A stretch of 4,066 bases of DNA. It comes from a virus (Duplodnaviria > Heunggongvirae > Uroviricota > Caudoviricetes). The notes beneath the pieces were generated by a model. That model searched no databases and was not told where the DNA came from. It worked only from the letters and a program-made list of their open reading frames with translations. Positions 1 to 357 of this stretch are shown one piece after another. The position numbers and the translations under genes were made by a program. The stretch is taken from the IMG/VR virus record IMGVR_UViG_2534681940_000043. One strand, 5' to 3'. How positions within the stretch are numbered: position 1 is the first letter of the stretch; each line of letters starts with the position of its first letter.

Positions 1-357
1 GAATTTGCTTTTGAAGCGTTAATGCATGATGCAACAGAAGCATATTGCCAGGACATCCCCGCACCACTGAAACGCCTTCTTCCTGACTATAAACGGATGG
101 AAGAAAAAATAGACGCCGTAATCCGTGAGAAATACGGGTTACCTCCTGTTATGAGCACGCCAGTGAAATATGCCGATCTCATTATGCTGGCAACCGAACG
201 CCGCGATCTCGGGCTTGATGATGGTTCTTTCTGGCCTGTACTGGAAGGTATCCCGGCGACAGAGATGTTCAAAGTTATTCCACTGTCACCAGGCCATGCC
301 TACGGGATGTTTATGGAACGTTTTAACGAGTTATCGGGGTTACGCAAATGCGCATGA
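1..357 (+). CDS. HD-domain metal-dependent phosphohydrolase, YfbR-like (5'-deoxynucleotidase family); 5' end lies outside the window
   Basis: The reading frame is open from base 1 (EFAFEAL precedes the ATG at 22), so the gene is 5'-partial. The motif MHDATEAYCQDIPAPLK resembles the YfbR core as I recall it (YHDASEVLTGDLPTPVK), with the HD dyad at 25..30 and the downstream Glu. A later VKYADL matches the position of the second metal-binding Asp region (VKQADAL in YfbR). Stop TGA at 355..357. Confidence 0.75.
   Translation, partial: EFAFEALMHDATEAYCQDIPAPLKRLLPDYKRMEEKIDAVIREKYGLPPVMSTPVKYADLIMLATERRDLGLDDGSFWPVLEGIPATEMFKVIPLSPGHAYGMFMERFNELSGLRKCA

Follow-up and report, generated by a model that had tools for sequence, protein, structure and literature searches.

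The 3' two thirds of yfdR, an HD-domain phosphohydrolase gene of Escherichia coli lambdoid prophages, at the edge of a viral DNA stretch

Introduction

Which gene is cut by the left edge of a 4,066-nucleotide stretch of viral DNA (IMG/VR record IMGVR_UViG_2534681940_000043, Caudoviricetes; the whole stretch is hereafter called the window), and what would its product do for a phage? The initial annotation, made from the sequence alone, described bases 1-357 as a truncated, phage-encoded 5'-deoxynucleotidase of YfbR type that is probably active and might remodel host nucleotide pools, nucleotide depletion being a known defence strategy. Our analysis identified the gene as yfdR. We give a probability of about 0.9 to the reading that yfdR is an accessory gene on the pL side of Escherichia coli lambdoid prophages and encodes an HD phosphohydrolase, with deoxynucleoside or nucleoside monophosphates ((d)NMPs) as the most likely substrates and binding of DnaA reported as a second property. 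This analysis established which gene it is, that its catalytic residues are intact and conserved, and what fold, family and genomic context it has.

Results and Discussion

Identification of yfdR at the left edge of the window

Analysis of the window revealed, at bases 1-357, the 3' two thirds of yfdR, an already known and named gene that is common in E. coli prophages. On the plus strand, frame 1 has no stop between base 1 and the TGA at 355-357. Its translation starts with EFAFEALMHDATEAYCQDIPAPLKRLL and ends with RKCA before the stop; the complete translation of bases 1-357 is EFAFEALMHDATEAYCQDIPAPLKRLLPDYKRMEEKIDAVIREKYGLPPVMSTPVKYADLIMLATERRDLGLDDGSFWPVLEGIPATEMFKVIPLSPGHAYGMFMERFNELSGLRKCA, followed by the stop. 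The visible part comprises codons 61-178 plus TGA, that is, the C-terminal 118 residues of a 178-amino-acid HD-domain phosphohydrolase. The gene's first 60 codons (its 5' 180 bases) are upstream of the window, and the open reading frame (ORF) is indeed truncated by the window edge, as had been annotated.

The assignment to yfdR follows from identical annotated DNA, from the recovered full ORF and from near-identity to the protein of strain K-12. A megablast search of complete E. coli genomes found bases 1-470 with 100% DNA identity in chromosomal prophages of many Shiga-toxin E. coli, and each identical copy carries the RefSeq label 'yfdR: 5'-deoxynucleotidase'. The same search matched these bases in 2984 of the 5426 genomes, i.e. 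over half, and near-identical DNA occurs in 50 phage records, mainly of Shiga toxin (Stx)-converting and other lambdoid phages. The identical copy from NZ_CP045827.1 contains an intact 178-codon ORF (5821-6357 of the extracted locus, L001), and its full-length product matches phrog_318, 'deoxyribonucleoside 5' monophosphate phosphatase', in PHROGs (E = 7e-110). The HD phosphohydrolase ORF proposed for bases 1-357 is thus real, its matches going far beyond what chance would give, and the proposed name agrees with the labels in RefSeq and PHROGs (5'-deoxynucleotidase and deoxynucleoside monophosphate (dNMP) phosphatase). Two further ORFs inside yfdR, at 87-272 on the minus strand and 170-433 on the plus strand, were treated as chance because the gene at this place is strongly supported.

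Comparison with K-12 YfdR (b2361, prophage CPS-53/KpLE1) revealed equal length, the same catalytic residues and 174 of 178 identical positions (98%) in the full-length protein from NZ_CP045827.1; residues 61-178 of the K-12 protein gave 96.6% identity to the window in tblastn. The four substitutions (K151N, S155A, E170D and G173E) are conservative and C-terminal. The copy at 1-357 would be full-length upstream of the window. It might instead be a decaying pseudogene of a cryptic prophage that yields no functional protein, considering that the 5' third of the gene is outside view, that the best-studied copy resides in the cryptic prophage CPS-53 and that truncated or partial yfdR products are common in databases (e.g. 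P0032 and P0094, 'partial'). We regard this as extremely improbable, with all 118 visible codons open and nearly identical to those of K-12, the visible catalytic residues intact, many genomes carrying the identical DNA with all 178 codons of the ORF intact, and the neighbouring xis and int ORFs of the window intact as well.

Conservation of the catalytic residues

Aravind and Koonin are said to have described the HD superfamily of metal-dependent phosphohydrolases in 1998. Residues are numbered here as in full-length YfdR, the window beginning at residue 61, and conservation refers to an alignment of 66 diverse full-length members of the family, mostly 40-67% identical to YfdR. All codons named below are on the plus strand. 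The metal-binding HD dyad, His69-Asp70 (cat gat, 25-30), is aligned to the HD of YfbR, Atu1052 and Lin2634 and is kept in 65 of the 66 relatives. Glu73 (gaa, 37-39; 64/66 relatives) corresponds to Glu72 of the HDAxE motif of YfbR, with HDATE facing HDASE in both the BLASTP and the hidden Markov model (HMM) alignments, and Asp78 (gac, 52-54; 65/66) is aligned to YfbR Asp77 of the GD/QD-hPxPhK motif. Asp119 (gat, 175-177; 64/66) is the last metal-binding aspartic acid of the H...HD...D pattern; it lies in VKYAD and is aligned with KKAD of Atu1052. The first metal-binding histidine, His50, is encoded upstream of the window; the identical full-length copy from NZ_CP045827.1 has it, and it is invariant in the alignment (66/66).

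The H...HD...D pattern of the superfamily is therefore found in full, with H69-D70 and D119 in the window and H50 in the identical copy. The initial annotation had seen the HD dyad, the downstream glutamic acid and the second aspartic acid region in the visible part, and this stands; one of the four metal ligands, H50, lies outside the window. The annotation had also advised recovering the full-length ORF and checking its metal ligands, and in the ORF taken from the identical copy H50, H69, D70 and D119 are each residues kept in 64-66 of the 66 relatives. All six residues (H50, H69, D70, E73, D78 and D119) are kept together in 63 of them. Conservation of this kind is the pattern expected of a catalytically active family. 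His50, His69, Asp70 and Asp119 would hold a divalent metal in a single-domain HD enzyme, and Glu73 and Asp78 would take the positions of YfbR Glu72 and Asp77; the crystal complexes of YfbR with its substrates were made with the E72A mutant, according to their PDB titles.

The 66-member alignment revealed further marks of the family, namely the nearly invariant C35-R36-F37-x-G39-H40 and the invariant K84 and E126. The segment from C35 to H40 aligns with 'YRCPGK' of Lin2634; alignments with YfbR placed this region unreliably. In YfbR itself, Zimmerman et al. 2008 reportedly described an N-terminal arginine-tryptophan pair, R18/W19, that binds the substrate.

YfdR belongs to a large set of relatives. 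A word-indexed search found 4728 clusters at E <= 1e-3, and HMMER, run exhaustively over 1.84 billion representatives, found 22,725 at E <= 1e-3, of which 15,290 reached E <= 1e-10. Some distant relatives of 350-410 amino acids (P0122, P0127, P0129, P0139 and others) are matched twice by YfdR and contain tandem duplicated HD domains of YfdR type. Two other proteins, P0004 and P0016, combine the Pfam domain DUF2303 (YfdQ) with a YfdR match, which may reflect gene fusion or an artefact of gene calling.

Family and fold

Is YfdR then YfbR-like, as annotated? Orthology with YfbR was ruled out: YfdR scores 19.9 bits on the NCBIfam equivalog model NF003009 (cut-off 122), and it also falls below the Pfam cut-offs for YfbR-like (PF12917, 24.3 bits vs 25.9) and HD_3 (17.0 vs 22.5). 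Since both the NCBIfam and the Pfam cut-offs are missed, YfdR is not an orthologue of YfbR, which itself scores 258 bits on the Pfam YfbR-like model and 362.6 on the NCBIfam model. Pairwise similarity between the two proteins is limited to about 40-65 residues flanking the HD motif, with 33% identity over 40 residues around HDAxE...DhPxPhK in BLASTP. The label 'YfbR-like' was right at the level of fold and clan and wrong at the level of family; as judged from profile and sequence comparison, YfdR is a member of a separate and very large YfdR/Atu1052 family.

The nearest solved structure is Atu1052 of Agrobacterium tumefaciens (2GZ4), found with E = 2.6e-13 by phmmer and E = 1.9e-30 with the family profile, followed by Lin2634 (5e-6) and YfbR (6e-5). 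Atu1052 is 26% identical to YfdR and differs from it in being chromosomal and in having small insertions; it is a structural-genomics deposit named 'protein of unknown function', and a literature search by the name Atu1052 found no paper on its function. The AlphaFold model of a relative 97% identical to YfdR (P0002) is of very high confidence (predicted local distance difference test 97.7, predicted template modelling score 0.92), and the all-alpha HD fold was found for YfdR. The core of this small-HD fold is common to YfdR, YfbR, HDDC2, OxsA and DatZ. Compared with YfbR, a 5'-deoxynucleotidase/dCMP (deoxycytidine monophosphate) phosphohydrolase of E. coli (2PAQ/2PAR/2PAU), YfdR is predicted from the model to carry an additional beta-hairpin at its N-terminus and to differ in its C-terminal half. 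YfbR is moreover encoded by a chromosomal housekeeping gene and YfdR by a prophage gene.

Function of YfdR

The phosphatase activity and the DnaA binding considered for the window copy are carried over, by analogy, from papers on the K-12 protein. Noguchi and Katayama 2016, summarizing Zimmerman et al. 2008, describe YfdR as structurally homologous to YfbR and as having far lower affinities for nucleotides, and state that its function 'remains elusive' given these low affinities (PMC4776307). A metabolic-engineering paper cites Zimmerman et al. 2008 for phosphatase activity of YfdR on cytidine monophosphate (CMP). YfdR would most likely remove the 5'-phosphate of (d)NMPs, with the low affinity given in the secondary literature. 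The remark of the initial annotation that the substrate cannot be inferred from sequence stands.

Noguchi and Katayama also reported that purified YfdR binds DnaA directly, that Phe46 in domain I of DnaA is important for binding, that YfdR competes moderately with DiaA and with DnaB in this binding, and that multicopy yfdQ-yfdR plus yfdS or yfdT inhibits initiation at oriC (PMC4776307). If the window copy behaves as the K-12 protein does, it would have Phe46-dependent binding to DnaA domain I as a second property, in competition with DiaA and DnaB, and would inhibit initiation at oriC when overexpressed with YfdQ and YfdS or YfdT. These observations on binding, competition and initiation also support a different view, in which YfdR is mainly a non-enzymatic binder of DnaA domain I that inhibits host initiation with YfdQ/S/T-like neighbours, and its weak nucleotidase activity is incidental. 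Against this, deletion had no phenotype and the authors themselves warn that what was seen on overexpression could be artefactual (PMC4776307). The metal ligands and the catalytic glutamic and aspartic acids are, furthermore, kept in 63 of the 66 relatives, which come from very different hosts, and tblastn found YfdR homologues in 333 phage records with hosts including Bacillus, Caulobacter, Rhizobium, Vibrio and Pseudomonas. An active site kept across phages of unrelated hosts is expected from selection on catalysis and not from selection on binding to E. coli DnaA, and we consider a mainly non-enzymatic YfdR unlikely.

We hold YfdR to be most probably a (d)NMP phosphohydrolase, and some points weigh against this. 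In an engineered strain, deletion of yfdR gave no rise in CMP yield. The activity and substrate range given for YfdR come from secondary citations and database names, codons 1-60 of this copy are outside the window, and its downstream partners are mosaic, having only their N-termini in common with K-12 YfdS and YfdT.

An HD enzyme might also act on nucleoside triphosphates. As a deoxynucleoside triphosphate (dNTP) triphosphohydrolase or diphosphatase resembling DatZ or OxsA, YfdR would deplete one dNTP for superinfection exclusion or pool remodelling; despite the common fold core, we judge this very improbable. DatZ of cyanophage S-2L (6ZPA), an HD dATP (deoxyadenosine triphosphate) triphosphohydrolase, is of a different family and acts on dATP in the Z-genome pathway, and no genes of that pathway were seen among the genes of the window or of L001. 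A relation to the defensive dNTP-depleting HD enzymes (SAMHD1/Dgt-like dGTPases and CloA) was rejected, as YfdR has neither a match to a defence model nor the architecture of a large multi-domain dNTPase. The role in defence or nucleotide depletion that had been raised for this locus is without support here: YfdR and five neighbouring ORFs gave no PADLOC match.

A functional analogue is Dmp of phage T5, a dNMP phosphatase by which the phage reshapes the dNTP pool of its host. T5-like phages can evade the Clover defence through mutations in dmp (PMC12265719; bioRxiv 10.64898/2026.04.02.716235). Homology between Dmp and YfdR was rejected, with an hhalign probability of 0.09 (E = 0.58), and Dmp matches no Pfam family at E <= 0.1. 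Dmp is, moreover, a pre-early gene product of a virulent phage, whereas yfdR is from a temperate phage. When carried by an inducible prophage of lambdoid or Stx type, YfdR might be, instead of a nucleotidase of housekeeping kind, a bifunctional factor of early takeover that joins dNMP hydrolysis to binding of DnaA domain I and shuts down host initiation; or, by changing the dNTP pool, it might set off or evade nucleotide-sensing defences such as Clover, as for T5 Dmp. Both ideas together are speculative and improbable in our estimate. As a (d)NMP phosphohydrolase, YfdR would be expressed with the early-left operon and could adjust host nucleotide pools, replication or both early after induction or infection.

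The prophage neighbourhood

The small same-strand ORFs of the window end in xis and int and are laid out like the early-left arm of a lambdoid prophage. The excisionase (2492-2746, plus strand; Pfam DUF1233, E = 2e-29; phrog_539; xisR in L001) marks this arm, and a tyrosine integrase (2780-4066, plus strand; Pfam Arm-DNA-bind_2 and Phage_integrase), with DNA 97% identical to int of VT1-Sakai, marks the prophage end. The gene at 1-357, lying upstream of xis and int in this region, is therefore phage-encoded, as had been proposed. In L001, yfdP and a YfdQ-family gene lie directly upstream of yfdR, and downstream come xis and int, followed by chromosomal mlrA; the order yfdP, yfdQ, yfdR is that of K-12, so that YfdR is found in its prophage context. 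The prophage backgrounds differ: the integrase here is VT1-Sakai-like, its homologue in L001 abutting mlrA, and CPS-53 of K-12 is integrated at argW. In the early-left region of L001, a ParA-family gene (2423-3508) separates the XRE repressor from yfdP.

Directly downstream of yfdR, and separate from the enzyme, lies a mosaic yfdS/Ea22-like ORF of 195 amino acids (348-935, plus strand). Its N-terminus matches K-12 YfdS at 52% over 88 amino acids (tblastn), and its PHROG matches are split between residues 1-48 and 39-194. With its ATG at 348, this ORF shares 10 bases with the end of yfdR (stop at 355-357), and yfdR and yfdS of K-12 overlap in the same way (L002, 9512 vs 9521); this identical arrangement suggests that the two genes may be translationally coupled. 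An ORF of 118 amino acids at 1449-1805 (plus strand) has a yfdT-like N-terminus, with 83% over the first 42 amino acids of K-12 YfdT (tblastn), and its PHROG families are ones of unknown function. With yfdS-like and yfdT-like N-termini downstream of yfdR, the published yfd neighbourhood is retained in mosaic form.

Comparison with prophage records revealed a mosaic window, since its two parts match different prophages: bases 1-470 are 100% identical to O26 and other Shiga-toxin E. coli prophages, and bases 469-4066 are about 97% identical to VT1-Sakai/O157:H7 prophages. Any one record covers at most 87% of the window at a single place. The junction, at about 451-470, lies inside the ORF at 348-935, just past its conserved N-terminal part of about 48 residues.

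Two other plus-strand ORFs were observed in the window. The ORF at 937-1452 (171 amino acids) shows, by eye, a PD-(D/E)xK-like motif (...GEQPD50AMGF...CLIE63AK65CS...) and may encode a nuclease of restriction-endonuclease fold in a region of exo-xis type; searches of Pfam, PDB sequences and PADLOC gave no match, and PHROGs gave only families of 'unknown function' (phrog_9263 and phrog_631). The ORF at 1802-2008 (68 amino acids) matches, at its extreme C-terminus, just positions 1-16 of the DUF551 profile, and its homologue in L001 has 196 amino acids; it may be a truncated DUF551 protein.

Conclusions

Thousands of E. coli genomes and many phages have an annotated yfdR, and at least two papers deal with the K-12 protein, so that the occurrence of the gene in the window carries little weight as a discovery. 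In vivo, the protein may act as a weak nucleotidase, a DnaA binder or both. According to recent work, phage dNMP phosphatases such as the non-homologous T5 Dmp shape dNTP pools that are sensed by some defence systems.
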